NCBI GenBank assembly: GCA_963835065.1
Contig: CAWIEK010000049.1
Span: 448,001-512,000 of the forward strand
Direction: 5' to 3'
Origin: an uncultured Chthonomonadaceae bacterium
GTDB taxonomy: Bacteria > Armatimonadota > Chthonomonadetes > Chthonomonadales > Chthonomonadaceae
Length of the DNA stretch: 64,000 bases
Shown here: positions 2,909 to 61,600 of the stretch, piece after piece
How positions within the stretch are numbered: position 1 is the first letter of the stretch
Layout of the letters: every line of letters begins with the position of its first letter
Notes under the pieces: generated by a model
The model's database searches: none
Told to the model about the DNA's origin: nothing
Seen by the model: only the letters and a program-made list of their open reading frames with translations
Position numbers and translations under genes: made by a program

Positions 2909-3021
2909 GGAGGCATCAGGCATTAGGCATTAGGCATTAGGAAAAAGTCGTGTCCGCTACTTGTACTCCATCTGACACAACCTGCTATACTAATGCCTAA
3001 TGCCTAATGCCTAATGCCTCC
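2909..3021. repeat. Inverted heptamer-array element (AGGCATT)4 ... (AATGCCT)4
   Basis: Tandem arrays at 2911-2941 and 2990-3021 are reverse complements around a ~48-nt spacer. Confidence 0.9.
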
Positions 3022-3023
3022 TC

Positions 3024-3752
3024 CTACTTCTTCTCAATCAGCGCCCGAAACTTGTTCAGGCCGTCCAGCGCGTCGCCGTTGCTGGAAATCACCAGGCGGC
3101 TGCCTAAAATGGAACCCAAGCGGCGTTCCAGCGTGGAGCGGAAGCCGTTTTCTGTGGACGCGCCCGCGAACCAGACGGCTTTCACGTTGCTGTGGTCGGC
3201 GATCTTCTGCGCGGCCTGTTCTTCGGCCTTTTTGTTGGTGTCCGTGTCTTCGCCATCCGTGAGCAGCAGGCAGGCGACGTTTTCGCCTTTGGCTTGCGCG
3301 GCCTGAATTGCCGTTTCCATTTCGTTCAGCGCTTTGGCGGGCAGGGTTCCCTGCGCGTCCTGATGATGGGCGATGCACTGATCTTCGTCCGGCCACATAT
3401 CCTCGGATTTGCGCGGCGTTTTGTCGCTGATCTCGTGCGCGTTCACATCGAATGCCCACAACTGTATTTCCGTGCCTTTGGGCAAGGCTCCGTCAATGGT
3501 GTTGTCCAGTACGCCGAACAGTTTTTGCCGGTCGCCTTTGCCGACGCTGTTGGTCACGTCCGCCGCGACGAGCAGATGCAGTTTCGTGCCGGGGGAGCGG
3601 TTGCCAAGCAGAAAGAAAGCGGCCAGTCCTAGGACGGCGATCAGGCCGACGGCGGAAAGCGCGGCAAGGGTATCATTGGATTTGTTGCCCGATGGGTGGC
3701 GGTTATCGCGGCGAGCGTAGGGGCGACCGTTGGCATTCCGGCTGGGTGGCAT
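3024..3752 (-). CDS. Membrane-anchored vWA-like domain protein
   Basis: N-terminal TM helix; LLVAADVTNS (MIDAS-like DxT/SxS), QGT and LLLTDGED motifs of the vWA fold. Confidence 0.65.
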   Translation of the reverse strand: MPPSRNANGRPYARRDNRHPSGNKSNDTLAALSAVGLIAVLGLAAFFLLGNRSPGTKLHLLVAADVTNSVGKGDRQKLFGVLDNTIDGALPKGTEIQLWAFDVNAHEISDKTPRKSEDMWPDEDQCIAHHQDAQGTLPAKALNEMETAIQAAQAKGENVACLLLTDGEDTDTNKKAEEQAAQKIADHSNVKAVWFAGASTENGFRSTLERRLGSILGSRLVISSNGDALDGLNKFRALIEKK

Positions 3753-4187
3753 GAAAAATCTCCCAAAGTCAAATTTAGCGCCCAAAACAGGGGCGGCAAA
3801 AGGTGAAATCTAACAGGCGGCAACGGCAAAATCAGATTGGAAAGCCAACACAGGATGAATATCAGCCGTCAGCAGCGACAAGCGTGTTGTAATTGCCACA
3901 GTATAACACGTTAAGGCCATATCCGCAAGTTCAGGCCGTGTCGGACACGGTACAGACGCGCCTTGCCTTTCATTATGCAGCCTCTATTTGCCTAATACGC
4001 GCCAAAGGCAAGGCAGGGTTCTCCATTTTGTAATTTCTGCGATACCTGTTTGTTCTTATCGGAGATTTGCCGGGTATTTTGCACTTTGCAGGGAAGTTCG
4101 CGCCCGATGGCGAAACCAACATTATAATGGCGGACGTCTAAACTTGCGATTGACGGACGGCTAAACCTGTGAACAAAGGGGAACATC

Positions 4188-6014: not shown

Positions 6015-6039
6015 TACTCCGTCAAGAATGAACGATCCG

Positions 6040-11875: not shown

Positions 11876-11990
11876 ATTTACGATTTTCGATTTTCGATTG
11901 TGGATTGCAGATTTAGATTTGACGCTTGTACAGGAACATGATGTGAAGAGGCGAATGACTTTTCCCTTTTCCCTTTTTCCTTTTCCCTTG
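11876..11990. repeat. Heptamer arrays (GATTTTC)n and (TTTTCCC)n
   Basis: Degenerate tandem heptamers between rrf2 and sufB. Confidence 0.7.
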
Positions 11991-12004: not shown

Positions 12005-13453
12005 ATGACGACCTTAGAAACCATGGACCCGATACAGGCTTCCATCAGCCAGGATTACAAATACGGGTTTAGCTCCGACATCGAATCCGAATCCATTCCC
12101 AAAGGACTGAGCGAAGACGTGATTCGGCTCATCTCTTCCAAAAAGAGCGAACCGGAATGGCTGCTGGAATGGCGGCTCAAAGCCTATCGCCACTGGCTGA
12201 CGATGGAAGACCCGCTCTGGCATAACGTCAAAATCGCGCCCGTAGACTATCAGGAAATCATCTACTACAGCGCTCCCAAGCCCAAAAAAGTCCTGAACAG
12301 TCTGGACGAGGTAGACCCGGAACTGCTGGAAACCTTTGAGAAATTGGGCATTTCGCTGACCGAACAAAAGCGGCTGACGGGCGTTGCCGTAGACGCCGTT
12401 TTCGACAGCGTTTCCGTAGCCACAACGTTCAAGGAAAAGCTGTACGACATGGGCATTATCTTCTGCTCATTCAGCGAGGCCGTCCAGAACCACCCGGAAC
12501 TGGTGCGCGAATACCTGGGTTCCGTCGTGCCCTATTCCGACAACTTTTTCGCGACCCTGAATTCCGCCGTGTTCAGCGACGGCTCGTTCTGCTACATTCC
12601 CAAAGGCGTTCGCTGCCCGATGGAATTGTCCACGTACTTCCGCATCAACGCCGCGAATACGGGACAGTTCGAGCGGACGCTGCTGATTGCGGATGAAGGC
12701 GCTTACGTGTCCTATCTGGAAGGCTGCACCGCGCCCATGCGCGACGAAAACCAACTCCACGCGGCTGTCGTGGAACTGGTTGCCCTCAAGGGAGCGACCA
12801 TCAAGTACAGCACCGTGCAGAACTGGTATCCCGGCGACAAAAACGGCAAGGGCGGCATCTACAACTTCGTCACCAAGCGCGGCAAAGCCTTCGAGAACGC
12901 CAAACTGACGTGGACGCAGGTGGAAACCGGCTCGGCAATCACGTGGAAATACCCAAGCTGCATCCTGCTTGGCGACAACGCGGTGGGCGAGTTCTACAGC
13001 GTCGCGCTGACCAACAACTATCAGCAGGCCGATACCGGCACAAAGATGATCCATATCGGCAAGAACACGCGCAGCACCATTGTCAGCAAGGGCATTTCGG
13101 CGGGCCGGGGCCAGAACACCTATCGCGGCCTTGTCAAAATCAATGCCGGCGCGGAAAACGCCCGCAACTACTCGCAATGCGACAGCCTGCTGATGGGCGA
13201 CCGGTGCGGGGCGCATACCTTCCCGTACATCGAAGTGAAGAACCCTACCGCGCAGGTGGAACACGAGGCGTCCACGTCCAAAATCGGCGAGGACCAGATT
13301 TTCTACTGCAACCAGCGCGGCATCTCGACGGAAGACGCGGTCAACATGATTGTCAACGGCTTCTGCAAGGAAGTGTTCCGCGAACTGCCGATGGAATTCG
13401 CCGTAGAAGCGCAAAAACTGTTAGGCATCAGTCTGGAAGGCAGCGTAGGATAG
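12005..13453 (+). CDS. sufB: Fe-S cluster assembly protein SufB
   Basis: YKYGF...[14 protein letters not shown]...GQFERTL...YLEGCTAP...NFVTKRG...EHEASTSKI...LEGSVG. Confidence 0.97.
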
Positions 13454-13562
13454 GTATTCAGGTGTTCAGGTGTTCAGGTGTTCGGAGGGGTGATATAGCA
13501 ACAATTTATACAAAAGCAGGAATCTTCCTGAACACCCGAATACCTGAATACCTGAACACCTG
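13452..13562. repeat. Inverted octamer-array element (AGGTRTTC)4 ... (CCYGAAYA)4
   Basis: Left arm overlaps the sufB stop codon; the right arm is its reverse complement. Confidence 0.9.
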
Positions 13563-13580: not shown

Positions 13581-14300
13581 ATGACAACAACCGTTCCGGC
13601 GAAAACCGCTGCCGTTCCCAAAGAACCTTTCTACCCTGTCAGTGATGGAGAACCGATGGCTGAAACCAATTTACATTGGGATGTTACCGTCTATGCCACC
13701 GAAGCCTTACGAGAGCGTTACAAGGATCGTAATGACGTTTATGTCGCCAGTGACAACTTTCTCTATTATGAGAAGAACATTCCCAGTTCCGTTGTATCGC
13801 CGGACTGTTACGTCGTTTTCGGCGTTCCTTCCAGCCTGCGCGACTCGTACAAAACATGGGAAGAGGGTGGTCGCCTCCCTTCGGTGGTGATTGAAATCAC
13901 TTCCAAAAAAACACGCAAAGAAGATACCGGGCGCAAGCTGCAAACGTATCAAAACTTGCGCGTTGCCGAATACTTTTTGTTTGATCCCACTGCCGATTAT
14001 ATTAACGCGCGTCTGAGCGGTTACCGATTGGGAGCGCAGGGTTACGAACTGATGCAGCCGGATGATTGGGGCAGGCTGACAAGTCAGGAACTTGGCCTGC
14101 AATTGATGGCGGAAGGCAACCGTCTGCGTTACTATGACCCAATAACACGCGAAAAACTGCTTACAGATCAGGAAGTGCGGGAACTTGCCAGGCAGGAAGC
14201 GCAACGCGCCGAACAAGAAGCAAAACGCGCCGACACCGCCGAAGCCGAAATCGCGCGTCTTCGGGCGGAACTTGCCGCGCTGCAAACGAACAAAGCCTGA
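13581..14300 (+). CDS. Uma2-family (DUF820) PD-(D/E)XK endonuclease
   Basis: YPVSDGEPMAETNLH, SPDCYVV, VVIEITSKKTRKED, VAEYFLFDP; C-terminal coiled coil. Confidence 0.9.
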   Translation: MTTTVPAKTAAVPKEPFYPVSDGEPMAETNLHWDVTVYATEALRERYKDRNDVYVASDNFLYYEKNIPSSVVSPDCYVVFGVPSSLRDSYKTWEEGGRLPSVVIEITSKKTRKEDTGRKLQTYQNLRVAEYFLFDPTADYINARLSGYRLGAQGYELMQPDDWGRLTSQELGLQLMAEGNRLRYYDPITREKLLTDQEVRELARQEAQRAEQEAKRADTAEAEIARLRAELAALQTNKA

Positions 14301-16528: not shown

Positions 16529-16611
16529 ATAGTTGATAGTTGATAGTTGGTAGTCCGATAGAGACGCGGCATCTACGGAAACTCTCAACTATCAACTATC
16601 AACTATCAACT
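16529..16611. repeat. Inverted heptamer-array element (AGTTGAT)n ... (ATCAACT)n
   Basis: Arms between sufD and sufS. Confidence 0.9.
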
Positions 16612-17929: not shown

Positions 17930-18383
17930 TGTCGGAACTGCGCGATCTGTATCAGGAAGTGATTTTAGATCACAACAAGCGGCCCCGCAACTTCGGCGCG
18001 CTGCCCGACGCCACGCGCCACGCGGACGGCCACAATCCCTTATGCGGCGACCAAATTTCCGTATCCGTAAAGCTGAACGGCGACCTTATCGAGGACATAC
18101 GCTTTGAGGGACAGGGCTGCGCTATTTCCAAAGCGTCGGCTCCATGATGACGGCGGAACTGAAAGGCAAAACGCTTGCGGAAGCGGAAAGCATCTTCGGC
18201 GTGTTTCACGAAATGGTCGCCGGCCCGCAGGAATTGGAAGAAGACGAAATCGAAGCGTTGGGCAAATTGGCGGTCTTTTCCGGCGTCCGCGAATACCCCG
18301 CCCGCGTGAAATGCGCCAGCCTCGCCTGGCACACCCTTCACGCCGCCCTGGAAAATCAAGAGATGCCGGTGACGACAGAGTAG
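17929..18383 (+). CDS. sufU: SufU/IscU-like sulfur-transfer protein (indel near 18140)
   Basis: LYQEVILDH, GHNPLCGD, GCAISKAS, then PARVKCASLAWH; TGATG coupling to sufS. Confidence 0.92.
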
Positions 18384-18471
18384 GGATTAGGGATTAGGGG
18401 TTCGGGATTAGGAACATGCCGCTGCTGCTTTCTGCCTTCACACCCCTATATTCCCTTAATCCCTAATCCCT
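18381..18471. repeat. Inverted heptamer-array element (TAGGGAT)n ... (ATCCCTA)n
   Basis: The first unit begins with the sufU stop codon TAG. Confidence 0.85.
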
Positions 18472-20441: not shown

Positions 20442-20537
20442 TTTGTCTTGAACCATGATTTATGTGATTTTGATGATTACCATGAGAAACGCGCCTTCTC
20501 AATCATGGTAATCCTGAAAATCATGGTTCAAGACAAA
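20442..20537. repeat. Inverted nonamer-type element
   Basis: TTTGTCTTGAACCATGATT ... AATCATGGTTCAAGACAAA outer inverted repeat with internal (ATGATT/AATCAT) units at about 9-nt period. Confidence 0.85.
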
Positions 20538-20867: not shown

Positions 20868-20945
20868 CATTCGCGTTTATTCGCGTTCATTCGCGGCTAA
20901 AGTTCTTCCCGTATTTTTAGTTTGTTCCGCGTATTTCGCGGTTCT
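20868..20945. repeat. Tandem 9/10-mer arrays (ATTCGCGTTY)n and (TTCGCGTAT)-type
   Basis: Seen directly downstream of the FAD-subunit stop codon. Confidence 0.7.
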
Positions 20946-22703: not shown

Positions 22704-22788
22704 ACAGGATTAAGTAAGATTCAAAGATCAGTTTTTCCCTATCTCCCCCTTCTCCTCTCCCCGTGTCCCCCGTGTTCCCCGTGGTTTA
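22704..22788. repeat. Nonamer arrays (CCCCGTGTY)n plus degenerate AGGATT units
   Basis: CTCCCCGTGTCCCCCGTGTTCCCCGTGG next to the Mo-subunit stop codon. Confidence 0.6.
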
Positions 22789-25041: not shown

Positions 25042-25143
25042 AGGTTTCAGGTTTCAGGTGTCAGGTGTCAGGGAAATGCTTTCTCCATATAAACTTTGAC
25101 AAGAGCAAAGACGTTCTTCCCTGACACCTGAAACCTGAAACCT
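25042..25143. repeat. Inverted heptamer-array element (AGGTKTC)4 ... (GAMACCT)3
   Basis: Arms between the 2Fe-2S and Mo subunit genes. Confidence 0.9.
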
Positions 25144-27381: not shown

Positions 27382-27811
27382 AACTCCTCCTCATGCTAAG
27401 GGTTCGTATTTTTAACTTCAGAAAAAACACAGAAAAAAGAGCAAAATAACGCAAAACAAACGAACCCTTTGCCCCATTCAGCCGTCTAAACAGTAGAACA
27501 ACGTCTACTACACAGATGTTATACCCACAGGAAGGCTTAGCGTTCGCAGTTCCTATCAACTATCACACTATCAACTAAGAAGGGAGGTGCAAGTCCTATG
27601 TTTCACCCCTCCCGTTCGCCCTGACGCTGCGAGGTCACGACGCCTCTCTCCTACAATTTGACACAATGAGACATCGGGCTGGAAGCGCTGTATTGCCAAG
27701 ATTTCGACGATGACTCTACATACCCTTTTTTCTAATCGTTTTTCTTCTTTTCAACATTTGTCTACTTGCAGCAATCCTGCCTTAACAGCCTCAACTTTGC
27801 TTGGAACGCGC

Positions 27812-29751: not shown

Positions 29752-31140
29752 TCATCCATCTAACCTGACCCCTGAATCCTGACCCCTGGCCCCTATTCTC
29801 ATCTTCACTCCCTCCCGCGGGCGCAGCGTAACGGCAGGCTGCAGCACAATGTTCTGACCGGACACGAGTTCAAAGCGGCAGGATTGCAGCAGGGTTGCCA
29901 GCACCAGAACGGACTCCATCAGGGCGAAGGTGTTGCCGATGCACACGCGCGGCCCGCCGCCGAACGGAAAATAAGCGTATTTGGGCAGGGTTCGGGCGAA
30001 ATCTCCCTCCCAGCGTTCGGGGCGGAACGTTTCGGGGTCAGGGAAAAAGCGGGCGTTACGATGAACGGCCCACTGGCTGATGATGATGGTGCTGCCTTTG
30101 GCAACGGCGTGACCGCCAATCGTACAATCGGCAAGGGCGCTGCGGCCAAGCACCCACGCGGGCGGATACAGGCGCAGGGATTCCTGTATCACCTGCTCCG
30201 TATACTTCAAGTTGGGCTTGTCGGCGGCGGTTGCGGGACGATTGCCCAAAACGGTTTCCACTTCCGCGCGCAGTTTCGCTTCCACGTCGGGATACTGCGC
30301 TAAGAGGTACAGCGTCCATGTCAGCGTCAGCGCGGTGGTTTCATGCCCGGCCAGAAACAGCGTCAGCACTTCATCCCGAATTTGCCTGTCCGTCATGGCC
30401 GCGCCGCTTTCGCTCCCCTCTCCTTCTTGCGCTTCCTCATCCTGCGCGCGCAGCAGCATGGACAGCAGATCGCCCTTGTCTTCCCCACTCGCGCGGCGAT
30501 CCGCAATCAGCTTGTACACAATCGCGTCGAGTTCGGCAACGGCGCGGGTCATTCCGGGCAAGCGCGGCGTGGGAACCCAGCCGGGCAGCATGGAAAGAAT
30601 GTGTATCCACTTTTGAAAATGGCTTTGCGTCAGTTCCAGCGCTTCCGACACGACACCCATGTTTTGCAGTTCCGAGCCGAACAGGGTTTTGAGCGCAATC
30701 GGCATCGTCAGCTGCGTCATTTCCTGATGAATGTCGCGCGTTTCGCCGTTGTTCCAGGTGGAGATATAGGAGCGCGTTTCGTCCACCATGATCTGCGCAT
30801 ACGCGGCAATGCGTTCGCGGTGAAACGCGGGCTGCGCCAATTTGCGCTGCCGCCGCCAGAAGTCGCCCTCACTCGTCAGCAGGCCGTTGCCGAACAGCAG
30901 CCTGCTGCGGCGCAGGCCGGGTCCCTTGCTGAAATTGCGGTACTGCGCCACCAGCACCTCTTCGATGTCGTCTGGATCGCCAAGCAGAAAGGCGCGGCGC
31001 GGCCCCAAACGCAGGGGAACCCAGTCGCCGTACTCGCGGGCGCAATACAGCAAAAAGTTGAGCGGGTCGCTGCGAAAAGCGGGCATGTGGCCCAACACAA
31101 CATTCCCCTTTGGGCTGTCAGCAAGCGCAGCAACAGACAT
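29752..31140 (-). CDS. Cytochrome P450
   Basis: AGHETTA I-helix, ESLR, PERW and FGGGPRVCIG heme-binding motif. Confidence 0.96.
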   Translation of the reverse strand: MSVAALADSPKGNVVLGHMPAFRSDPLNFLLYCAREYGDWVPLRLGPRRAFLLGDPDDIEEVLVAQYRNFSKGPGLRRSRLLFGNGLLTSEGDFWRRQRKLAQPAFHRERIAAYAQIMVDETRSYISTWNNGETRDIHQEMTQLTMPIALKTLFGSELQNMGVVSEALELTQSHFQKWIHILSMLPGWVPTPRLPGMTRAVAELDAIVYKLIADRRASGEDKGDLLSMLLRAQDEEAQEGEGSESGAAMTDRQIRDEVLTLFLAGHETTALTLTWTLYLLAQYPDVEAKLRAEVETVLGNRPATAADKPNLKYTEQVIQESLRLYPPAWVLGRSALADCTIGGHAVAKGSTIIISQWAVHRNARFFPDPETFRPERWEGDFARTLPKYAYFPFGGGPRVCIGNTFALMESVLVLATLLQSCRFELVSGQNIVLQPAVTLRPREGVKMRIGARGQDSGVRLDG

Positions 31141-39359: not shown

Positions 39360-39735
39360 CATCTTCCGGTTGCAAACGCGCACAGGTCTGCGCAATCACA
39401 ATCAGGACACCTTCCAGATTGTCGCGCACATCGGCGTTGGTAACGCGCAGAGTATGGTAGCCGTGCAAATGCAGCCAGTCGTCGCGGGCGGCGTCACGCT
39501 CGACGGTTCCGTTGTGCGAACTGCCGTCCACTTCCACGAGCAGGCGTAACTCCGCGCAGTAGAAGTCGGCAATATACCTGTCCAGAACCACCTGACGGCG
39601 AAACTTGTGCCCGTCGCACTTCCGGTCACGCAAATACGCCCACAACCGCGCTTCCATAGGAGTCATTTCGCGGCGAAATTGGCGGGCGCGTTCCGTCAGT
39701 TGCGGACGGATACGCAGGCGTTTCTCTTGGGGCAT
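39331..39735 (-). CDS. DUF559 (Vsr-like) endonuclease
   Basis: RARQFRREMTPMEARLWAYLR, KFRRQ, YIADFYC, LLVEVDGSSH, DAARDDWL, LRVTN. Confidence 0.93.
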   Translation of the reverse strand: MPQEKRLRIRPQLTERARQFRREMTPMEARLWAYLRDRKCDGHKFRRQVVLDRYIADFYCAELRLLVEVDGSSHNGTVERDAARDDWLHLHGYHTLRVTNADVRDNLEGVLIVIAQTCARLQPEDGTLNPGPSP

Positions 39736-40808: not shown

Positions 40809-43537
40809 GGCGTAGGGCGGCCCTGTGTTGAAGTTCCCGAGTGGCGCATTCTTTGCGGCGGGTTCATTTGCGTTGGGCTGCTTTGCATTAGAGTTTTCCG
40901 GCGCCGCATTGTCCTGCCCTGCCGCTTTTTGCGCCGCTTCCGCGTCCGCTTGCTGCTCCTGATGGAAGGTCGTCTGCTCTGCCTGCCACCTGCGCGCGGG
41001 CTGCGTTTTCGGTCCCGCCCTGCTGCTGTAAAGCCTTTTGCCATTCCGTTAGAACCTGATCGTACAGCGTGGTCAACCCGGCTGCTTTTTCGGGATTTTG
41101 CGCGCGCTGTAATTGGTAAATCTCGTAGCCGCGATGCTGCCAGTAAGCGCGAAGCAATCCGGCGGCTTTCTCGAACTGCGCCGCCGCTTCCTTTGCCTGC
41201 TGCCGCTCCAACAGCCATTTGCCAAGCCGCGCATGGGCAAAAGCGAACTCGGTTTCCGTCGCTTCCGGCATTGCGCGTACCGTACCGACAGGTGTTGCTT
41301 CCAGGCCGGCCATCTCCTGATAGGTTTGCGCAGACTGCGCCGCATTTCCCGATAAAGCCTGCGTTTCAGCCAGCGCGCGCAGGGTTTGCAGGTTATGCGG
41401 ATCATATATCGCGGGCGTTTTGCAGGGCGTCCAGAGCCGGCTTGTACGCAGTCGCGGCTCCTCCCTGCAAAACGCCGCTCAGGGCAAGCGGAGCATCGTT
41501 ACCGGAACTGTTTGCGCCTCCCAAAGCCTGCCGAATAGCCTGTCGCTTGTAAAACTGCCCTAACTGGTAGTACGCTTTGCCGGAGGGCGCAATTCGCGTT
41601 GCCTGCTCCAGCGCCATTCTCGCTTTATCCGGTTCTCCCATCATCTGGTATAGGCTGCTTGCTTTCGCCAGCGGTTCCGACGTAAACGGGTCTATATTCG
41701 CCGCAGACTGATAACTGTGCAGGGCGTTTTGCAGGCTGTCCCGCGCTCCCGCCGCGCCCTGCGCCTGCTGCTCCTGAAACTCGGCTACCGACAGCATGGC
41801 CTGCGCCGCCTGCAACCGCGATAGATAGGTCACGCCCCCGCGCCATGCCAGCAGCAGCGCGACAACGCCACACGCCGCCAACATTCCCTTCGACAAGGGA
41901 CGGGGCTTTTGCGTTGCAAGCGGGGCAATGTCCCGCGCCTGCGCCGTCAGAAGCCCGACAACCGCGCTCAGGGTCAGGGCGGTTGCCAGAATGTACCAGT
42001 CCGAATCGAACAGACTGTGCAGGATGGAACACACTATCGCCGCCAGCAATCCGGCTAATAGCAGGCGAGGCTCTTCAAACAATTGCCGATTGCCGATTGC
42101 CGATTTTCGATTTTCGATTTTCGATTTTCGATTTTCGATTTGGGCAGATGGCGTTGTGTTTTCCGGTAATTCTATATCGTTGATGTAGAGGTCGTTGGTG
42201 GCGGGATGCGCTTGTGACGTTGGGGCGTTTTTGGCGTTTGCGCGTGATTTGCCGGGAGTGTTTAGAAACAGGACGTAGACGGCGAAGGCGGACGAGGCGG
42301 CGAAAACAACGAGCAGGCACAGCGCGCCGGGTACGCCGGTTTCCGCCGTCCATTGCAAAAAGCTGTTGTGGGCATGGGCGGTGGGGGCGGCAACAGCGTA
42401 GCGCGGGTAGGCGGTTTCGTAGCTGCCGATGCCGGTTCCCGTCAGCGGGTTGGCGCGCGCCATGCCCAATGTCGCCGTCCATGTCACCTGCCGGAACTTG
42501 CCGGAATGGGCCTGCGTGTCCGCCGCTTCTCCGACACTGGCAACAGCAGCCGTCGCGCTGCCCGTCGCCTGCTTGCCCGTATTCGTCAGGCGAATCAGCA
42601 GGGGCGTAGACGCCAGCAGCGCGGACAGCAGCATCACGCCCAATCCGGCAAGCAACTGTCGGCCTCGCCCTCGCACAACGCCCACGCGCAGCAGCAACAG
42701 CAGCCATCCCACTACAACCACAAACAGCATTGCCACGCCCGCCCGCGAACCCGTCAGCAACAGGCACGCGGTTTGCAGCACAAGCCCCAAACCAACTAGC
42801 AGCTTGGCTTTACTTTCGCGGGCGGACACGAAGCACGACAGCGTTAAAGGCAAGGTCAGCAGCAGATACCCGGCAAGAAAGTCGGGGTTGAGAAACGTGC
42901 CGAACACGCGATGCGCGGAATTGCCCTGCTTCCACTGATCCAGATACTCGTGAATGCCCCACGCGCCCGCCAGACTTCCCGCCGCTATAATCACGAGAAG
43001 CAATGTAATTAGCGCGTTATGGTCACGGCCCAACCGTGACGCCAGCCCGCCGACTGTCAGCGCGGCCAGCAGCATGGCCCACGTATCCAGACGCGCCGCA
43101 TTGAGGGGCGGATGCGCGAACATGGAAACTGCTGCCCAAATTGTCAGCACACATGCGCCTCCCGCCAAGCCTCCTACCGCGCCAATCGCAACCGGGCGGT
43201 GCCACTCGCGGGCTATCGTCACGCCCAACGCCAGCGCGGCCACAACGCTGAGTATGGGTACGCTCATTATTTGCAGCCAACTAATCACATCTGCGGGCGG
43301 AACGGAGTTCAACGACGTAGACGCAAACACGCCCGCCATCAAGGGAGCCAGCAACAGCGCAAAGGCGACCAGGTACAACGCGATTTTATCCAGCGACGAC
43401 AGAGCGCGCGCATCTCGTTCCTGCGCCGTTTCAGACACGGATTCAGGCGCAGGCTTCACATTCCCTACAGGGCTATCCTCAAGGCCATCTTCATCAGCAG
43501 AAATATCAACAAGTCGCAAAGGCGGTGGTTCGGTCAC
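40805..43537 (-). CDS. O-antigen ligase (Wzy_C)-family membrane protein with TPR C-terminus (indels near 41000 and 41400)
   Basis: RVFGTFLNPDFLAGYL, TGSRAG, NPLTGTGIGSY, HAHNSFLQWTAETG; TPR-like helices; GTGA overlaps at both ends. Confidence 0.85.
42081..42143. repeat. In-frame heptamer array (RATTGCC)3(GATTTTC)5GATTTGG
   Basis: 9 x 7 = 63 bp; translated as QIENRKSKIENRKSAIGNRQL. Confidence 0.9.
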
Positions 43538-44820
43538 GAAGCGTCTCCGGGGCGGCGCAAACCGGAAGCCTCCGGGGGCGCAGTCGCCGCGTTGGTTATA
43601 GTTGAGTCAGGTACAGGCGAGCCGGTTATGGCTGCGTTGGTCAGGGCTGCATTAGTTAGGGCTGCATTAGTTAGGGTTGCATTAGTTACGGATGCATTAG
43701 TTAAGGTTGGAATGTGTGGCACGGCTGATAAATTCGGCAGCGCGGAAACTTTTGGCTCAACGGGCGCAGATCTTTTTTTACGCCACGCCGCCAGTTTGCG
43801 CTGCCAGTAACGGACGCGCCAGCGCAATATCTGCCCGACTGCCCGCAGCGCGATACCCGGCAAAATCAAAGGCCGCAGCAAAAAGGACGTTTGCGCCCGA
43901 TAGTGCTTTTTATAAAACAAATACTGGCTGCGATGAAATTCATACGTCATGCGCGTCGGAGCCTGATCGCTGCTTTTGCCGATGTAATGGTAGATGATGG
44001 CGTCGGGCAGGTAGGTAACGCGCCAGGTAAGGGAACAGGGAACAGGGAACAGGGAACAGGAGTCTTTAGTTGATAGTTGATAGTTGATAGTTGATAGGAC
44101 ATCCGCTCCTTCTGTCTTCTCTTCTGTTCCCTGTTCCCTGTTCCCTGTAACCTGTAACCTGTAACCTGTTCCCTTTTCCCTCACCGAAACGTGATTGGCC
44201 CGCCAGCACAAATCTACATCCTCGCAGTACATATAATAATCTTCATCGAAGCCGCCGATCTGGTCGAGGCAGGCGCGGCGGATCATCAGGGCGGCCCCGG
44301 ATACCCAATCCACATCACGGGGCGTGGCGTGGTCCCAGTTTTTCATCAGGTAGTCGGCGGCATGGCGGTTTTTGGGCAATAGTCGTCCGAGCGGCGTGTT
44401 GTGCAGAAAGCCGGTGGCAAGATTGGGATACTGACGGCACGAGTATTGCAGGCTGCCATCCGCATTGAGCAGTTTGGGGCCGAGAATACCCACATCGGGG
44501 TTGGCGTCGGCGTAATCCACGAGGCTTTTTAACGCGCCCTCCGTCACCTGCGTATCCGAGTTCAGGAACAAAACGTAACGCCCCGCAGAAGTGGGAATGC
44601 CGACATTGTTGCCCGCGCCGAAGCCCAGGTTCATCGGGTTGGCAATCAATTTTACCTGTGGAAACTCGCGCCGTACCATATCGCGGCTGTCGTCACTGCT
44701 GGCGTTGTCCACGACAATCACTTCCACATCCAGGCCGTTGTGCGGACGTGTCAGGGTTTGCAGGCACTCCTGCAGCAGTTTGCGGGTATTCCAGTTTAGA
44801 ATGATAACGGATAAATCCAC
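43534..44820 (-). CDS. GT2 glycosyltransferase (WbbL/RfbF-like) with a repeat-derived insert and pentapeptide tail
   Basis: SVIILNWN, VVDNASSD, FLNSD, DWVSGAALM, GGFDEDYYMYCEDVDLC. Confidence 0.92.
   Translation of the reverse strand: MDLSVIILNWNTRKLLQECLQTLTRPHNGLDVEVIVVDNASSDDSRDMVRREFPQVKLIANPMNLGFGAGNNVGIPTSAGRYVLFLNSDTQVTEGALKSLVDYADANPDVGILGPKLLNADGSLQYSCRQYPNLATGFLHNTPLGRLLPKNRHAADYLMKNWDHATPRDVDWVSGAALMIRRACLDQIGGFDEDYYMYCEDVDLCWRANHVSVREKGTGYRLQVTGNREQGTEEKTEGADVLSTINYQLSTKDSCSLFPVPCSLTWRVTYLPDAIIYHYIGKSSDQAPTRMTYEFHRSQYLFYKKHYRAQTSFLLRPLILPGIALRAVGQILRWRVRYWQRKLAAWRKKRSAPVEPKVSALPNLSAVPHIPTLTNASVTNATLTNAALTNAALTNAAITGSPVPDSTITNAATAPPEASGLRRPGDAS
44030..44181. repeat. Nested in-frame heptamer element (AGGGAAC)4-(AGTTGAT)4-(CTGTTCC/CTGTAAC)7
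   Basis: Inverted arms with a second array type inside; lies within the GT2 reading frame. Confidence 0.92.
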
Positions 44821-46728: not shown

Positions 46729-46823
46729 AAGTGATGAACAATGAGTGATGAATAGAATTCTGCTTCATCATTCGTCATACGCCGCTTGCTTATTCATCAT
46801 TCATCACTCATTGTTCATCACTT
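46729..46823. repeat. Inverted heptamer-type element (GATGAAY/ATTCATC)
   Basis: 25-bp perfect inverted repeat AAGTGATGAACAATGAGTGATGAAT; the right arm encodes the GT2 C-terminus and stop codon. Confidence 0.88.
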
Positions 46824-47727
46824 GCTTGTGTCTTTTCCGCGCTTGCAGCCAGGCGTGGGGCCAGGATGCGGCGGCGATGAGCAGGCGCAGGGGCCAGAAC
46901 CAGACAGCGCGGTAGTGCTTGGCGTAGAAGCGCAAAAGCCCACGCCGCGACTCCCAGGCCATTGCGCTGCCGACTTGGACGGTACTCGCGCCGCCATAGT
47001 GGATAATCTCGACTTCGGGCGTGAACCAGATTTTCCAGCCCGCCCGCTTGCAGCGCAGGCACCAGTCCACTTCGTTGAAGAAAATCGGGAAGGCCAAATC
47101 CATCAGGCCGACTTCTTCTATGGTTTGACGGCGCAGCAGCAGAAAAGTGCCCATCGGCTGATCCACTTCCGCTGTATGCGCGTAATCGAACCACGTCATA
47201 CGGTACGCGCCGAACACGCGGCTGCCTGGCAGCAGGCGGCTCAGGCCAAGCAGTTCCCATAGTACCGCCATAGGAGTCGGAAACCCGCGCACCGATTTTT
47301 GCAGGCTGCCGTCCGGGTGTACTTGCCGAACGCCCAACGCGCCCGCGTCAGGATGTTGTTCCATAAACGCGACGGCTTTTTCCAGCCCGCCGGGCGGCAA
47401 AATCACGTCTGGGTTCAATAACAGATTATACGCAGAACGCGCGCGTTGCAACGCCTGATTATTGCCTTCCGCGTAACCGGTATTGTCCTCATTGGCGATA
47501 AGCCGCGCCTGTGGAAACCGTTCCCGAACCGCCGCCGCGCTGCCATCATGCGAATTATTGTCAACGACAATCACTTCAAACCCAAAATTAGGCGGCGTGT
47601 CGTAAATACTGGCAAGCGCGCCGAGCAGCAAATCCCGCGTGTTCCAGTTGACGATGCAAATGGAGAGGAGGGTGTTCGGGTATTCGGTATTCAGGTGTTC
47701 AGGTATTCGGGTATTCAGGTTATCCAT
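46804..47727 (-). CDS. GT2 glycosyltransferase (WbbL/RfbF-like)
   Basis: SICIVNWN, VVDNNSHDGS, LLNPD, VDQPMGTFLL, FPIFFNEVDWC. Confidence 0.92.
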   Translation of the reverse strand: MDNLNTRIPEHLNTEYPNTLLSICIVNWNTRDLLLGALASIYDTPPNFGFEVIVVDNNSHDGSAAAVRERFPQARLIANEDNTGYAEGNNQALQRARSAYNLLLNPDVILPPGGLEKAVAFMEQHPDAGALGVRQVHPDGSLQKSVRGFPTPMAVLWELLGLSRLLPGSRVFGAYRMTWFDYAHTAEVDQPMGTFLLLRRQTIEEVGLMDLAFPIFFNEVDWCLRCKRAGWKIWFTPEVEIIHYGGASTVQVGSAMAWESRRGLLRFYAKHYRAVWFWPLRLLIAAASWPHAWLQARKRHKQVMNNE

Positions 47728-47820
47728 ATGCCTATTCCGCGTTCGCTGCCCAACGGTAAAACGTCATGCAAGTTACGCCTCTGCCTGAACACCTGAATAC
47801 CCGAATACCTGAACACCTGA
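47670..47820. repeat. Inverted octamer element straddling the HAD/GT2 junction
   Basis: (RGGTRTTC)6 at 47670-47720 and (CCYGAAYA)4 at 47784-47820. Confidence 0.9.
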
Positions 47821-48516
47821 CCACAGTTCGCCCACATCTTTGAGCAGAACATCGGGTGGGCAGGCGGCAAAGGCTTCGGGCTGCTGCTTGCGCAAGAAGC
47901 CCATTGTATGCATTTTAGCCGCGCGTCCGGCCTGTATATCCATAACGTGATCGCCCGCCATCAGGCAGTTTTGCGCCTGCAGGCGGCGTTCGGGAAACTT
48001 GGTTTGCAGGACGCGCAGGGCATCCATCAGATGGCCGGGGTGCGGCTTCACCTGTTCCACGTCCTCGCGGGACAGCAAAACGTCGCACTGCAAATCGCCT
48101 TCCACGAGCAGGCGGTCTGAAACCATGCGGCAATTGCGGGTAACGATGCCAATGGGAACACTCCGCCGGTTCAGGTAAGAAAGCAATTTGGATGCGCCGG
48201 ACAGTAAAACAGGATCGGCGCACTGCGCGGCCTCCTGCGCGGCCAGCATCGCAAACGCCGCGTCATGAAAGTTTTTGTGCGCCCCGCTCATCGTGATGCT
48301 TTGCAAAATCGCCGTGACGCGCTCCACAATCGAAAGAATGTCCATATCGCGCATATAATCTGTTTCTACGCCCCACTCCACGCCCAATGCCAGAGTCTTC
48401 TGCTTCATCTCAACAAAGTCAATATGCGTTTCAATCAGCGTGTTATCCAGATCAAACAAAACCGCGTCGCTTTGCAGCAGCAGGCGAACCGCCTTTTCAA
48501 TCATTTCGATGTGCAT
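47773..48516 (-). CDS. HAD-family hydrolase (phosphoglycolate phosphatase-like)
   Basis: VLFDLDNTL, GIVTRN, KPHP, AGDHVMDIQAG. Confidence 0.88.
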   Translation of the reverse strand: MHIEMIEKAVRLLLQSDAVLFDLDNTLIETHIDFVEMKQKTLALGVEWGVETDYMRDMDILSIVERVTAILQSITMSGAHKNFHDAAFAMLAAQEAAQCADPVLLSGASKLLSYLNRRSVPIGIVTRNCRMVSDRLLVEGDLQCDVLLSREDVEQVKPHPGHLMDALRVLQTKFPERRLQAQNCLMAGDHVMDIQAGRAAKMHTMGFLRKQQPEAFAACPPDVLLKDVGELWSGVQVFGYSGVQAEA

Positions 48517-48544: not shown

Positions 48545-48645
48545 TTCGTTTTGGTTCGCGTATTTCGCGGTTCCTCTCTCCTTTTCTCCTTCTCTTCTTT
48601 TCTTTTCCTCTGTGCCCCCTCTGTGTCTCTGTGCCTCTGTGGTGA
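48545..48645. repeat. Tandem arrays TTCGCGTAT-type and (CTCTGTGY)n
   Basis: TTCGCGTATTTCGCGGTTC (also at ~20930) and CTCTGTGTCTCTGTGCCTCTGTGGTG. Confidence 0.7.
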
Positions 48646-50866: not shown

Positions 50867-52241
50867 ATGGTTTTTCATCGCTTCACACCGTCCTGTTTCT
50901 CACATTCTACGCGACGCGCCGCAAGCCTATTGCTTGTTTCCGCTTTCGCCGCCACCGCCACCACCCGCGCCCAAACACCTCCCTCCCCCAACCCCAACAC
51001 TCAACTCCCAACCTGCTTCCCCAATCGCAATCCAATCGGCAATCGGCAATGAAGAATTGCGCGGCATGTGGGTCATCTGCGACAGCCTGGAATCGCCCGC
51101 GTCCATTCATCAGGTAATCGTCACGGCGAAGAAATACGGATTGAACGCGCTGTTTGTGCAGGTGCGCTCTCGCGGGGATGCCTGGTACAATTCATCGTAT
51201 GAACCCCGCGCCGAAGGCTTGAGCGGGCAGCCGCGCAGTTTTGATCCTCTGACGCAGATGGTTGCGGAAGGACACGAGGCGGGGCTGGAAATCCATGCCT
51301 GGCTCAATACCTTCATTACCTGGAGCAAGCCGCGCCGTCCCCGCAGCCCGCAGCACGTTTGGAACGCGCACCCGGAGTGGTTTTCCCATGACTGGCACGG
51401 ACGGCTTTCCACCGCCAACACGGAAGACTGCGAGGGCGTGTTCCTGCAGCCCAGCAACCCGCAGGTGCAGCAGCATCTTTTCAACGTGTTTACCGATGTG
51501 GCCGCCCGCTACGACGTGGACGGCATCCACTTCGATTATGTGCGCTACCCTAACACCACGTATGATTTTTCCGGTTCTACGCTGGCCCGCTTCGCCGCTT
51601 ATATGCGAACGGACACGGACGCGGCGACCATTCAGAAACTCGACGCCCGACTGAAGCACGATCCGAAAGCCTATGTTCATGCGTTCGGCAGGCAATGGGA
51701 GGATTGGCGGCGGGCGCAGGTGACGGGACTGGTAACGCGCATTTCGCAGGCAGTGAAGGCCAACAAGCCCTGGATGCAGGTCTCGGCAGCCGTGTTTCCC
51801 GACGCCAAAGATGCGTCTACGGATCGGGGGCAGGACTGGATGGCCTGGCTGCACGAGGGCGTACTGGACTCGGTTTCGCTGATGGCCTACAATACCAGCA
51901 CGGCGCGGATCGTGGAGCAGACAAAGCGCGCGGTTGCCATAGCGGGCGAGCGCAAAGTGTATACGGGTATCGGCGCATGGCGCTTGTCCGCCCACGACGT
52001 AGCGGCGAAAATCGCCAAAGTGCGGCAGGCGGGCGCGTCGGGCGTCAACCTGTTCTCTTACGACGAAGTTCACAACCGCCGCCAATACCTGAGTACGCTA
52101 TCACGGGGCGTGTTTGCCAGTCGCTCGGCTCCCCCGCGTATGCGCTGGCTGCCCTCCCGGAGCGGAAGCGTCAACCGGAACGGCCAGAACCCGGAACAGT
52201 CCAAACCGGAACAAACCAAACCGGAACAAACCCAACCGTAG
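50867..52241 (+). CDS. Exported glycoside hydrolase-like family 10 (DUF187, YddW/DigH-like); indel near 51010
   Basis: AGGAG RBS, signal peptide; ELRGMWV, NALFVQVRSRGDAWY, FDPL, EIHAWLN, YDVDGIHFDYVRYP. Confidence 0.9.
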
Positions 52242-56149: not shown

Positions 56150-56264
56150 TAGGGGGTTATGGTTTTAGGGTTCTATGGTGTTAGGTATTGGGTATTAGGT
56201 GTTGGGCTTCTGTCTTCTGTCTTCTGTCTTCTGCCTAATATCTAATGCCTAATGCCTCATGCCT
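56150..56264. repeat. Composite heptamer element (TTRGGTR)n-(CTTCTGT)3-(CCTAATG)n
   Basis: Inverted arms with a third array inside, between the two cyclophilin genes. Confidence 0.85.
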
Positions 56265-56996
56265 CTACTGCGCCGTCAAACTTTTAATCACATCGCCCTT
56301 TTGGATTTTGTCTACCACGTCCTGCCCTTCCACAACCATGCCGAAGACGCAGTATTGATGGTCGAGGGCGGGGTTATCATTCAGGTTGAAGTAAAACTGG
56401 CAGTCGCCGCTGTTGGGCGATTGCGAGCGCGCCAGGCCGATGCTGTACTTCTTGTGCAGCAGATGCGCTTCCAGGGGCACAGTCTTGCCGGAGTCGTGGG
56501 AGCCGATGCTTTTGGCGTCGAACTCCTCCACGCTGGCGTCTTTGCTTTCCGGGTCGCCGCCCTGCACGACGAAACCGGGTTCAAGGCGGTGGAACTTGAT
56601 GCCTTCATAAAAATGCCGATGGCACAGATCGAGGAAATGCGCGACGGTTTGCGGAGCCGCTTTGGGGTACAACTCCATGACGATTTTACCCCGGCCTTCC
56701 ACTTCCAGAGTGGCTTTTTGCGCCCCGGCTTTCACCTGTTCAAAGGTCATGGGCGTGGTGTCCGCGGGGGGCGCGTCTGCCGCTGCCGGGGGCGTTGTTT
56801 TTCCATTGGCTGGCGTTGATTTGGCGGTGGCCTGCTGTTTGCGCGCTTCTTCCTGCTCTTTCTCCTCGTCAACGCGGGCCTGGTCAGCGGGCGGCAAAGC
56901 GCCGCGATTCGGATGCCTGGAGGAAACAACGGCAGTCAAGAGAATGGCGGCTAAAATTAACCCCACAATTCCCAACAAAGGGCTGATGGATCGCAT
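56265..56996 (-). CDS. Membrane-anchored cyclophilin-type peptidyl-prolyl isomerase
   Basis: N-terminal TM helix; APQTVAHF, FHRLEPGFVVQGGDP, NSGDCQFYF, YCVFGMV. Confidence 0.9.
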   Translation of the reverse strand: MRSISPLLGIVGLILAAILLTAVVSSRHPNRGALPPADQARVDEEKEQEEARKQQATAKSTPANGKTTPPAAADAPPADTTPMTFEQVKAGAQKATLEVEGRGKIVMELYPKAAPQTVAHFLDLCHRHFYEGIKFHRLEPGFVVQGGDPESKDASVEEFDAKSIGSHDSGKTVPLEAHLLHKKYSIGLARSQSPNSGDCQFYFNLNDNPALDHQYCVFGMVVEGQDVVDKIQKGDVIKSLTAQ

Positions 56997-58034: not shown

Positions 58035-58156
58035 TAGTTGATAGTTGATGGTTGATAGTTGATAGTTCCTGTACCATAGTCTTTGCTGTGGGTTTGGCTG
58101 ATGATGAGGCTACTCTACATTCGGGCAGATGCCTATCAACTATCAACTATCAACTA
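58035..58156. repeat. Inverted heptamer element (AGTTGAT)4 ... (ATCAACT)3
   Basis: Same unit as at 16529; lies between hisF and hisI. Confidence 0.9.
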
Positions 58157-58171
58157 AAAAGGAGTGTTTTC

Positions 58172-58543: not shown

Positions 58544-58546
58544 TGC

Positions 58547-58667
58547 GGGTGTTCAGGTGTTCAGGTATTCGGGTTTCAGGAAATACAGAAGTACCGCAGT
58601 TTACTATGGCACAGCAAGTTGAATACCTGAACACCTGAACACCTGAACACCCGAATACCTGAACACC
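58547..58667. repeat. Inverted octamer element (RGGTRTTC)n ... (GAAYACCY)6
   Basis: Same unit as at 13452 and 47670. Confidence 0.9.
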
Positions 58668-58692
58668 GTTTTACGAAGGGAACTACCCATCC

Positions 58693-61600
58693 ATGTCTGC
58701 TTTGTCCGCTTTTCGCAGGAAGATTGGTTTGCGCCGCGTCCTTGCCGCTTCTGTAGGCGTTGGAGCGTTGTTGGGAGATCGGCAGTTTCGGGACAGCCCG
58801 CGCAGGCTGCCCCGCCGCACTATGCGGACATTATGCCTTTGAGTCAGGTAAAGCCGGGAATGACCGGGTACGGCCTGACTACGTTCAAGGGCACGACGGT
58901 TTCGCGCTTTGAAGTGACCATTATCGGTATCGAGCGCAAGGTGAACAACGGGCATGACCTGATTCTGATTCGCATGAAGGGCGGCCCGATCACCGAACGG
59001 GGCGCGAACCTGATTCACGGCATGAGCGGCAGCCCCATTTATATTAACGGCAAGTGCATCGGCGCGTTCTCGCAGGGCGAAGCCTGGCCCAAAGAACCCG
59101 TCGGCATGGTCACGCCCATCGAAGATATGCTGGAAGCGTGGGACCCGGATATTCCCCAACAGCCCCCCTATTTCCAGCCCGCCGACAAGCAGCCCACGCC
59201 GAACGCGCCTACTAACCCATCGCCGACAGACAAAGACAAGCCGGAAGCGAGTAAAGGAAAAAAGGAAAAGGGCAAAACCACCCGCGCGGGTATTTACCCT
59301 CAACCCTCAACTCTCAACCCTCAACCTGTGACAGTGCAGTTGTCCACGCCTGTAACGGTTGGCGCTCGGCGGATTAAAACCATTGTGCTGAATGCGGGGC
59401 CGAACAGCGCTTGGCAAGTCGGGACGATTGCGCCGTGCTGCACCGGGCGACCTCATTTGCAGTGGTCAGCGGCGTCAGCGACAAACAGCGCGAAGCGTTC
59501 CAAAAGGAACTGGACAAGCGCGGCTTTGCTATGACACTTATGCAGGGGCCGGCAATGGCGGCGGGCAAGGCCAACATTCCCGCGTCGTCCTTAAAGCCCG
59601 GTTCCGTGTTCGGCACGTTTTTGTCGTCCGGGGATGTAGAATTCGGCGCGTTCGGAACCGTGACGTACCGCAAGGGCAACCGCATTTTGGGCTTCGGGCA
59701 TCCGTTCTTCGGATTGGGGGCGCTCAATGCCGCCACGACAACCGCGTCCGTCGTAGACGTGTTTTCGGGCTTGCAGACTTCGCACCTGATTGCCGAAGCC
59801 GGCCCGGTTGTTGGCACGTTCACGCAGGATCGGAATTTTTCGGTGGGCGCGGAATTGGGCCGCAAACCCATACAAATTCCCTTTACCATCACGGTCAATG
59901 ACCAGACCATGCACCATAGCCAGACGTTCCACACGCAGATGTTCCAGCATCCCGACCTGACCGCCGCGCTGATGAGCATGATCGGGCAGGCGGCGGTATC
60001 GCGCATTCACAACATGCCCGGCGACATGATGGCGCGGGTGACGACAACGGTGGACGCGGGCGAAGTGGGCAAAACCACGCGCACCAACCTGCTGTTCGAC
60101 GCCGACGACATTTCGCAGGCCGTGACACATGACCTGACCGACATTACGGGCATTATCAGCGGCAACCCGTTTTATCCCCTGCCGATTAAAAGCGCGAGTA
60201 TGACCGTGAACCTGTACAGCGGGCACAACACGGCCACCATTGAGCGCATCTTTCTCAAGCAGGGACGCTACGAACCGGGTGACACGCTGGAAGTGGGCGT
60301 CGTGCTGAAACCGTATCGCCGCGACCCGATTTTCAAAAATTTAACGCTGAAAATTCCTTCCGACACACCGACCGGACGCTACGCGCTTGCGGTGCGCGGC
60401 GGTTCGCCGACCGTAACGCGCATCGGCCCGTTTGTTCTCAGCGGGGGCGGAGCGCCGGACACGCAGACTCCTCCCGTCAACGTCCGGCAGATGATCGCTC
60501 GCTTAAACGCGCGGGAAACCAATACCGACATGGTAGCGCGTCTGGTGCTGAACACCGCTGCCCCTGCTATCGAAGGGGAAAAACTGTCGCAACTGCCGCC
60601 CAATCTGGCCGTGCTGATGCGCAGTGACCGCAACTCCGGCGTCCGAATCGAGCGCGACGAATTGCGAGCGAGTGCGCCTACGGATTATGTTGTGAGCGGG
60701 ACGCAGCAGCTTGTCGTGACCATTGTGCGCAAGAACACGCAGGAAGTGCCCGGCGCGGTCACGTTCCCAAGTTCTTCGGGCAGTTCCTCAGCAGGCAGCA
60801 GTTCCTCCTCCTCGTCGCTGCAATCAGGAAGCAGCAGCGGCGCTTCCGCGCAGGACGATGACGCGAAAGCAGCGCCGGACAGCGTGAACATGGGACTTTT
60901 GCAGTTGGGCAGTGAAACGCAGCGCTGGTTTGATGAATTGACCGGCGCGAATAAAGCAAAGCCGCAGGAAACGGCTGCCGAGCAGGACCCTTCCGTGAAC
61001 CCGCTCAAGCCGACGGCTCCCGACGCCAAAACCAGGCAGGACAAGAACTCTAAAACCAAAAACACGAAGCAGGCGGTGGCGGCTCCGCCTGCCCCTGCTG
61101 CCACTCCCGCCGCTGCCGCCACAACCGGGGATACCAAGCCCGCAACCACGCCTAGCGACAACGAACCCGTGAAAATCGTCGCCCGCCAACTGCAAGTGTG
61201 GCGGCAGTCGGGCGCGAACGGCTTTGCGTCCGGCAAGTTCATGGGAACCAGCGTGACGGCAACGGGGGAACTGCGCCTTGCGCCCCGCCTGCGTCGACTG
61301 GCAACTACGAATGAAACCTATATCTGGTCCGTCGTAACCGACAATGACGGCAACGTGTACGCGGGAACCGGCACATCGGGCAAAATCCTGAAAGTGGATG
61401 CAAGCGGGGCGGTGAAAACATTCGCGCAGTTGCCTATCGTGTCCGTGCAAAGCCTGCTGATGGCGCGGGATGGAACCTTGTGGGCAGGCAGCAGCGTGAA
61501 GGGACAACTGTTTCACGTCAAGCAGGACGGCACATTCACGCTGACCGCCACCCTGCCGGAAAAATATATCCTTGCGCTTGCCGAAGACAGCGCGGGAAAT

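Follow-up and report, generated by a model that had tools for sequence, protein, structure and literature searches.

Polar repeat-array elements and a four-helix-bundle gene in an uncultured Chthonomonadaceae bacterium: a candidate two-part mobile system

The window analysed here is a stretch of 64,000 nucleotides (positions 448001-512000 of contig CAWIEK010000049.1, hereafter C49) from an uncultured Chthonomonadaceae bacterium, whose genome (G000) is assembled into 71 contigs totalling 8.0 Mb. It carries short elements built from tandem arrays of 7- to 10-base units, in which a G-rich arm (G-type), a spacer and a C-rich arm (C-type) follow one another. These arrays are real, selfish-element-like and probably tied to the four-helix-bundle protein family PF05635/TIGR02436. 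On balance, we lean slightly towards a two-part mobile system similar to REPINs (repetitive extragenic palindromic, or REP, doublets forming hairpins), in which a pentameric helper protein would likely bind five AG dinucleotides, or heads, in each arm. To our knowledge, decades have passed without agreement on what causes the excess of 7-base repeats seen in many bacteria, and we know of no function for the PF05635 family, whose structures have been solved. The five-head count, the tie to the gene and the relocating cassette may join both puzzles, with a predicted pentamer binding five heads 7 bases apart.

Array census and polarity

G000 was compared with two congeners, G001 and G002, and, at ribosomal RNA (rRNA) sites, with the further relatives G005 and G013. 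Gene positions in G000 are those of the 7248 models from our own gene caller. Arrays were found at the roughly 20 window loci where a preliminary description, made from the letters of this stretch, had placed them. Across G000, the scan gave 2162, 324, 116 and 57 arrays at periods 7, 8, 9 and 10, respectively, as compared with 0, 0, 1 and 1 in a locally shuffled genome. They occupy 1705 loci in total and include 105 heptamer unit types. Where consecutive arrays are separated by less than 100 bp (n=930), a G-type arm precedes a C-type arm in 718 cases and follows it in 6. Both arms have the same unit in 383 of the 475 G-C pairs that lie 30-100 bp apart (chance level, 5.9%), and G000 contains 474 matched elements with a median length of 115 bp.

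With respect to genes, the arm located 3' of a stop codon is G-type in 744 cases vs 48, and the arm 5' of a start is C-type in 474 vs 34; host genes are flanked as C...G 144 times vs 11 times as G...C. Since the same reading is obtained on both strands, the G-first polarity is a property of the element and is not tied to transcription.

An assembly artefact, named earlier as a possible refutation, is ruled out because X2 record 10, a contig about 94% alike that comes from an independent run, spans the element at 16529 and because G002 carries such elements at junctions shared with G000. Eleven of the twelve inverted pairs that the preliminary description had named gave ungapped inverted-arm scores of 16-30; the remaining one, at 56150, scored 10 yet reached a fold z of -6.3. 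An Rfam search of the window returned no match.

Head count, arm pairing and folding

The constant feature of the elements is the count of AG heads at period 7, five being the commonest. Runs of 4, 5, 6 and 7 heads at this period number 611, 1204, 239 and 62 in G000, and those at period 10 number 103, 5, 1 and 0. The peak at five is also present in G002 (43, 61 and 14 runs of 4, 5 and 6 heads), and such runs are scarce in G001 (9, 5 and 0). The modal arm lengths are 31 nt for 7-mers, 35 nt for 8-mers, 25 nt for 9-mers and 27 nt for 10-mers. In other genomes, among the matches listed, AG at period 7 is constant while the inter-head letters vary within one arm.

Adjacent G-C arm pairs are complementary in 570 cases and non-complementary in 341 (n=911). 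None of the 36 four-arm stacks is matched both inside and outside, and an origin of the stacks by mere nesting of elements that stayed intact was rejected. The fold z of matched elements is -6 to -11, and two non-complementary pairs that were tested folded no better than shuffles. Spacers alone showed no such structure (median z -0.24 as RNA and -0.10 as DNA), the largest spacer family had no consensus fold, and the orientation of spacers relative to transcription is random (18 vs 21).

Copying of elements and reuse of slots

Elements are copied as whole units. Near-identical arm-spacer-arm units lie in unrelated flanks, with for instance 53/54 and 55/57 spacer bases identical, and the likeness stops at the outer arm ends; some other identical pairs are plain duplications with common flanks. 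The spacer had been described as unique and non-conserved, which did not hold: of 325 simple distinct spacers, 159 exceed the null cut-off with at least one partner and form homologous spacer families, and 18 best-partner pairs have different flanks. In the largest family, all 63 profile matches are two-armed and 62 are concordant in unit. AGTAGTC is the unit in 46 of them and the remainder is spread over eight other calls, with mixed intermediates; a G002 member carries 8-mer arms. Because one spacer family spans several units with concordant arms, the spacer is inherited while both arms drift together. The spacers are 71% identical to their majority line, and the arms differ by about 7%. Variant units are common to both arms of one element in 81 of 135 cases, as against 43% across different elements, and are shared at mirrored arm positions in 87 of 529 (16%) vs 7%. 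No target-site duplication was seen in a test that could not resolve duplications of 2-3 bp (5-mer direct match 8.1% vs 5.9%, 8-mer 0 vs 0, n=396).

Insertion slots are reused by different elements. Forty-six G000 element sites were matched in 800 kb of G002, where 24 hold a different unit, 9 a similar one and 13 no called array, several of the latter showing degenerate elements by eye. When 18 sites were compared in 400 kb of G001, 17 were without a called array. The comparison of orthologous junctions proposed in the preliminary description thus gave two pictures, slots being mostly occupied in G002 and mostly without array in G001; the period-7 arrays of these regions number 101 per 800 kb and 3 per 400 kb, respectively. 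One slot holds a 7-mer element in G000 and a REP-like element in G002.

The four-helix-bundle gene and its arms

Each of the three PF05635 genes of G000 is enclosed by G...C arms (one arm of the gene on contig C25 was recognised by eye only), the reverse of the arrangement around host genes, and their arm units are among the common units of the genome. A search for homologous helper loci found 79, of which 9 were dropped for short flanks and 70 were kept, covering many bacterial and archaeal groups; two archaeal records, L175 and L188, contain homologous cassettes. An array lies within 200 bp of the helper gene in 55 of the 70 loci, and matched inverted arms occur in 21 of the 70 vs 0 of 492 control windows. 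Period 7 accounts for 74 of the 80 arms. None of the three G000 cassettes is found at the corresponding site of G001 or G002, and neither of the two G002 cassettes is at its site in G000; the slot there contains a 7-mer element without the gene, a 9-mer element or other DNA, or has nothing in it. The helper cassette changes site between congeners. It contains no template RNA or polymerase gene, and no reverse transcriptase was found at the three G000 cassettes.

The G000 four-helix protein scores above the PF05635/TIGR02436 profile cut-off. Its structure, predicted with a pLDDT of 96, has a template modelling score (TM) of 0.91 to 2GSC and of 0.76 to 4DWL, the Avd protein of a diversity-generating retroelement (DGR). 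Entries 2GSC and 2RLD have five chains each and are 43% and 27% identical to the G000 protein, which is therefore predicted to be a pentamer. The invariant residues of the family are Q41, S48, N52, A54, E55 and E78. 2GSC has been described as a homopentameric toroid (PMC4990558), and a PF05635 gene is noted inside cas loci (PMC3936711), which fits insertion at operon junctions.

At the genome level, 201 genomes of the phylum were surveyed and called dense when they had at least 20 five-AG runs per Mb. This was the case for 31 of the 89 genomes with TIGR02436 and for none of the 112 without it. The median five-AG density is higher with the gene in 19 of the 21 families having both states, and the congener G001, which has no four-helix gene, has few period-7 arrays. 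These results indicate that dense five-head arms likely depend on the four-helix-bundle gene.

Other candidate gene families

The preliminary description had listed four gene families that might be enclosed between arms. The four-helix-bundle gene was retained for the 7- and 8-mers and GxxExxY for the 8-10-mers; Uma2 and DUF559 were not. GxxExxY genes have their own 8-10-mer inverted arms (21/29 vs 0/54), two of the three such genes of G000 keep their site in G002, and none of the 20 genomes with GxxExxY alone is dense. A parallel 8-10-mer class with three-copy arms accompanies GxxExxY (PD-(D/E)XK-family) genes. Uma2 was rejected because 45 of 50 genes have no arm (G000 has 55 matches to PF05685). 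DUF559 was rejected as partner of the 7-mers since it has its own non-tandem palindromic repeats; the window gene (39331-39735) and its palindromes form a third pairing of a gene with a repeat. Y1_Tnp was likewise rejected: none of the four PF01797 matches has 7/8-mer arms, and three of these genes, similar to RAYTs (REP-associated tyrosine transposases), have their own palindromes (C42:76421-76894, C51:103020-103472 and C49:523718-524347). Among the genes within G...C arms (the 11 above and those in long pairs), only the four-helix and GxxExxY genes were identified, the other enclosed genes being partly annotated. G000 has two reverse transcriptase genes (C49:681660-682277 and C50:52695-53327), and no repeat-templating enzyme or nuclease was identified for the 7-mers.

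Elements at junctions, in proteins and in rRNA

Even where the next start is at least 60 nt away, 73 of 89 elements directly adjoin the stop codon, and a TAG stop supplies the first AG in 100 cases. Occupied junctions make up 17% of the divergent and 24% of the co-directional ones. A constant position at operon junctions, as proposed earlier, was however not found: the window arrays at 44030 and 42081 lie in frame within genes, and 270 of the 1705 loci fall at a depth of 150 nt or more within gene models, of which 232 are affected. Non-complementary pairs are enriched there (145/270 vs 199/1435 elsewhere), and the G arms on the sense strand inside models are mostly of stop-free units. Orthologous segments are in frame in 9/9 G001 cases and in 7/13 G002 cases; because of the latter figure, some of the intragenic models may be miscalled.

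The rRNA genes of G000 hold five elements, three in 23S and two in 16S, none with an open reading frame (ORF). In 23S, one element takes the place of a GNRA tetraloop, which G002 and G005 retain intact. One 16S element is located at a tip that is empty in G001, G005 and G013 and that carries a different unit in G002. At the second 16S site the boundaries are common to G000 and G002, and the unit is different in G002. By alignment with these relatives, at least two rRNA elements replace tip loops that are short in the latter. A gene for RNase III is present in G000. In the rRNA operon of G001 (L265), a genome without the four-helix gene, long hairpin inserts occupy the same 16S and 23S sites, and one of them shows degenerate AGGGAGT arms. 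At L255:8082-8108, a CGATTKY-type array lies amid the tRNA genes of a 16S-23S spacer.

Elements of the window

The matched AGGCATT element at 2909..3019 lies between two minus-strand genes and has an RNA fold z of -10.6. The array at 11876..11989, between the rrf2 stop and the sufB start, had been taken for a single arm; it is a mismatched pair (CGATTTT G-type and CTTTTCC C-type arms; fold z -1.2), and the G002 site has related arms with another spacer. The matched 8-mer AGGTRTTC element at 13452..13562 has its first AG in the TAG stop of sufB. It is followed by a Uma2 (PF05685) gene at 13581-14300, in the sufB/sufC gap, which in several relatives measures only about 15-40 bp. The matched AGTTGAT element at 16529..16611, spanned by X2 record 10, lies in the sufD/sufS gap and corresponds to a 10-mer array in G002. 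The TAGGGAT 7-mer element at 18381..18471 starts in a TAG stop; G002 has an 8-mer element at this junction and that of G001 is empty. Three genes of the suf operon appear split, namely sufC (14382-14816 and 14863-15168), sufD (15183-16013 and 15829-16521) and sufU (17929-18147 and 18144-18383). These splits are frameshifts or sequencing errors, the operon being otherwise intact.

Arms of longer units follow, with a 9-mer-type inverted element at 20442..20537, of the class linked to GxxExxY genes, a 10-mer C-type arm at 20868..20895 that is kept in G002, and 9-mer-type arms at a gene junction at 22704..22783. The element at 25042..25143 is a matched AGGTKTC element, and G002 has the same unit family with a diverged spacer. 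At 27553..27577, the single arm named in the preliminary description is indeed a lone CTATCAA arm, though it forms part of a different high-copy repeat (27480-27660). Many G000 copies of this repeat carry the arm and the matching G002 repeat does not; an arm has thus hitch-hiked in another mobile repeat. A single C-type arm lies at 29764..29794.

Two loci are coding. An eight-unit CGATTKY arm at 42082..42141 is in frame within an O-antigen-ligase-like gene (41402-43438, minus strand), and a stacked element at 44030..44181 (AGGGAAC, AGTTGAT, then CTGTTCC/CTGTAAC arms) lies in a GT2 glycosyltransferase gene (43534-44820, minus strand). The latter is an in-frame insert of about 53 residues, facing a 53-residue gap in paralogous glycosyltransferases. 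The tail of the same GT2 gene has a 15-bp coding tandem repeat (43625-43703) that is unrelated to the arm family.

Further on, a matched GATGAAY element (46729..46823) and a matched 8-mer element at an HAD/GT2 junction (47671..47824) are followed by stacked C-type arms, 10-mer-like and 8-mer, with no called G arm (48545..48641) and by stacked degenerate C-type arms upstream of a GHL10 gene (50983..51050). The stacked element at 56150..56265 separates two cyclophilin genes, and its right part is also found on an independent contig (X2 record 15). A matched AGTTGAT element fills the hisF/hisI gap (58035..58156), a matched 8-mer element lies downstream of hisI (58548..58667), and an ACCCTCA C-type arm is located inside ORF 58833-59534 (59296..59326).

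Proposed mechanism and alternatives

In the two-part model that we slightly prefer, the elements would be non-autonomous and would depend on the four-helix protein encoded between the same arms, loaded cassettes and empty elements having the same ends. On single-stranded nucleic acid, each subunit would read a single NG head, which is AG in most cases, and a pentamer would therefore read five. The five letters between heads would be free to drift, which could explain the interchangeable units. Two rings might then join two inward-facing arms, complementary or not. Binding of five heads by a pentamer would account for unit drift, the five-head mode, the inward polarity and the tolerance of mismatched arms. 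The ring proteins TRAP and Hfq also read spaced short motifs. Insertion would favour exposed single-stranded sites, i.e. those after stop codons, at hairpin tips and in existing elements. In rRNA, selection would retain arms that are complementary, and in proteins arms that are free of stops; the survivors in operons would be those in the gap between the stop codon and the ribosome-binding site. Cutting and joining may come from a partner enzyme.

Several observations weigh against this model. The four-helix family has no recognised transposase, nuclease or polymerase motif, so that another enzyme may do the chemistry. Among the TIGR02436 carriers, 58 of 89 are below the density cut-off, hence the gene is not sufficient; the 201 genomes include kin that are not independent, and the AG-run pattern used for them is blind to GG- and CG-headed units. 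Dense genomes represent 25/50 of those with GxxExxY too vs 6/39 of those with the four-helix gene alone, a difference that may reflect a shared permissive host. At period 8, the raw AG count has no five-head peak (299, 146 and 42, with a four-head background of roughly 100-160). The arms at helper genes of other phyla are broader in head count, with five heads in 27 of 83, six in 19 and four in 16. Finally, the correlation between the identities of protein and unit is weak (Mantel rho -0.08, p 0.10), and protein-unit co-evolution was not retained; the unit is shared in 43% of 76 protein pairs at 65-75% identity and in 6% of 1160 pairs at 45-55%.

A bolder version, which is possible but which we rather doubt, is a transposase-free mobile system of bacteria and archaea, in which a pentameric Avd-like ring would count the five AG heads of each arm, synapse any two arms that face inward and itself drive both copying and the exchange of arms; GxxExxY would run a parallel three-copy system. 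If this is true, the heptamer excess of short tandemly repeated repetitive (STRR) sequences, the intervening sequences (IVSs) of rRNA and the repeat-encoded segments of hundreds of proteins would all have a single source, and the original task of the DGR Avd fold would come to light.

It is less probable that the four-helix gene is a passenger or accessory and that the elements are cut and moved by a different enzyme, be it the GxxExxY nuclease, a reverse transcriptase or host repair, the five-head length then reflecting that enzyme or a folding limit. The lack of a catalytic motif in the family would fit, as would the highest densities being found with both genes, the two reverse transcriptase genes of G000 and the role of the fold relative Avd as a reverse transcriptase accessory (PMC10053308). 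However, six genomes are dense with the four-helix gene and no GxxExxY and none with GxxExxY alone, GxxExxY has its own 8-10-mer arms, and the changes in spacers are ordinary transitions that affect all four bases, without the adenine specificity of DGRs.

Still weaker is the case for host-selected RNA hairpins or RNA-binding sites, with the four-helix protein as a regulator and not a mobiliser; RNase III processing, mRNA stabilisation and post-stop translational control are candidate roles. The strong folding of matched elements, the abutment to stop codons even where space is available and the filling of slots across species (33/46 with an array in G002) would speak for it, as would the presence of RNase III, which cuts IVS stems (PMC4990558). 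Against it, 341 of 911 adjacent pairs are non-complementary, which had already weakened the shared hairpin function raised in the preliminary description. Moreover, 270 loci are within coding models, spacers are randomly oriented and have no excess structure of their own, divergent junctions are filled nearly as often as co-directional ones, and the helper cassette itself relocates.

It appears improbable that arms are made de novo at both ends of a break, in a telomerase-like manner with the G-rich strand toward the break, the units being added independently on the two sides before joining. Such synthesis would agree with the strict inward G polarity (718 vs 6), with stacks that combine blocks of about 30 nt in many ways, of which 0/36 four-arm stacks match both inside and outside, and with the lack of visible target-site duplication. 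On the other hand, the spacers, like the short linkers, are inherited, elements are copied whole, units shift stepwise with mixed intermediates, and the cassette has no template RNA or polymerase gene. Period-7 polymerase slippage with hairpin-templated repair and gene conversion but no dedicated protein, proposed in the literature for the heptamer excess (cited in PMC4692102) and in line with local repair for the sharing of variants between arms, is largely refuted and very unlikely, as it cannot give the five-head peak with its five-fold drop at six, the fixed polarity, the copying of unique spacers or the all-or-none tie to one small gene.

Taken together, the fixed polarity, the five-head mode, the copying of units and the dependence on the four-helix-bundle gene uphold the shared generator that the preliminary description had preferred to random slippage. 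The genome has been reshaped, with about a fifth of its gene junctions occupied, about 230 gene models with repeat-coded segments and both rRNAs entered.

Comparison with known systems

The closest likeness is with REPIN-RAYT systems (bioRxiv 10.1101/2021.07.10.451892), which have extragenic elements of about 100 bp, hundreds per genome, with inverted ends and a variable spacer, and a low-copy helper gene flanked by the same repeats, the populations differing between lineages. By this analogy the present system would work like REPIN-RAYT, yet it departs from it in four defining features. The arms are tandem 7/8-mers instead of the short palindromes of REP arms; the helper is a four-helix bundle and not a Y1 tyrosine transposase; the cassette relocates (5/5 absent in the congener), whereas RAYTs stay at one site and are vertically inherited; and many copies lie in coding sequence (270/1705 loci) and rRNA, whereas REPINs are almost exclusively extragenic. 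In addition, about a third of the arm pairs are non-complementary, and archaeal cassettes exist.

The five empty rRNA elements resemble rRNA IVSs, which occur with or without the S23p ORF, a member of the same family, PF05635 (PMC4990558). An IVS is a sporadic stem-loop insert that takes the place of a small loop, and in G000 this description fits the rRNA copies alone. IVSs are further characterised by excision by RNase III with no subsequent ligation, and G000 has the RNase III gene. Nearly all copies in G000 are outside rRNA, and the rRNA copies have no ORF.

For STRR and other heptamers, Rehm 2015 (PMC4692102) describes convergent inverted pairs (70 in Xanthomonas campestris pv. campestris), a preference for four units and, for one Xanthomonas unit, the same polarity; the unit GGGAATC is that of Xanthomonas and Nostoc. 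As here, the G-rich strand lies 3' of stops, the C-rich strand 5' of starts, and some copies are within ORFs. The TAACTGA heptamers of Beggiatoaceae also lie 5' of starts and inside ORFs (MacGregor 2015, PMC4679880). Each of the two papers deals with a single unit, for which G-quadruplex or translational roles are proposed; neither, in the parts available, ties heptamers to a four-helix-bundle gene, spacer families or the copying of units. A literature search, with subscription journals mostly outside its reach, found no paper tying the repeats to this gene. Most units in G000 cannot form quadruplexes.

Avd is a pentameric nucleic-acid-binding barrel. The DGR Avd structures (4DWL and 8UB7-8UBE) have the same four-helix fold (TM 0.73-0.79), but the G000 proteins reach 28-30 bits where the cut-off of the Avd model is 80, and the cassette has no reverse transcriptase or template repeat. 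DGR-type adenine mutagenesis of the spacers was rejected, as no adenine bias was found. Bacterial miniature inverted-repeat transposable elements (MITEs) and Rickettsia palindromic elements are short non-coding mobile units with inverted ends, the latter inserting in frame in proteins. Terminal inverted repeats and copying as a unit are found here as in MITEs; the differences are that no target-site duplication was seen, that no cognate insertion sequence transposase was found among the enclosed genes that were annotated and that the ends are periodic heads and not a fixed sequence. What G000 adds to these known systems is the number of heads, a dependence on the four-helix-bundle gene seen at the level of whole genomes, the copying of units whose two arms drift in concert, and the inserts in proteins and rRNA.

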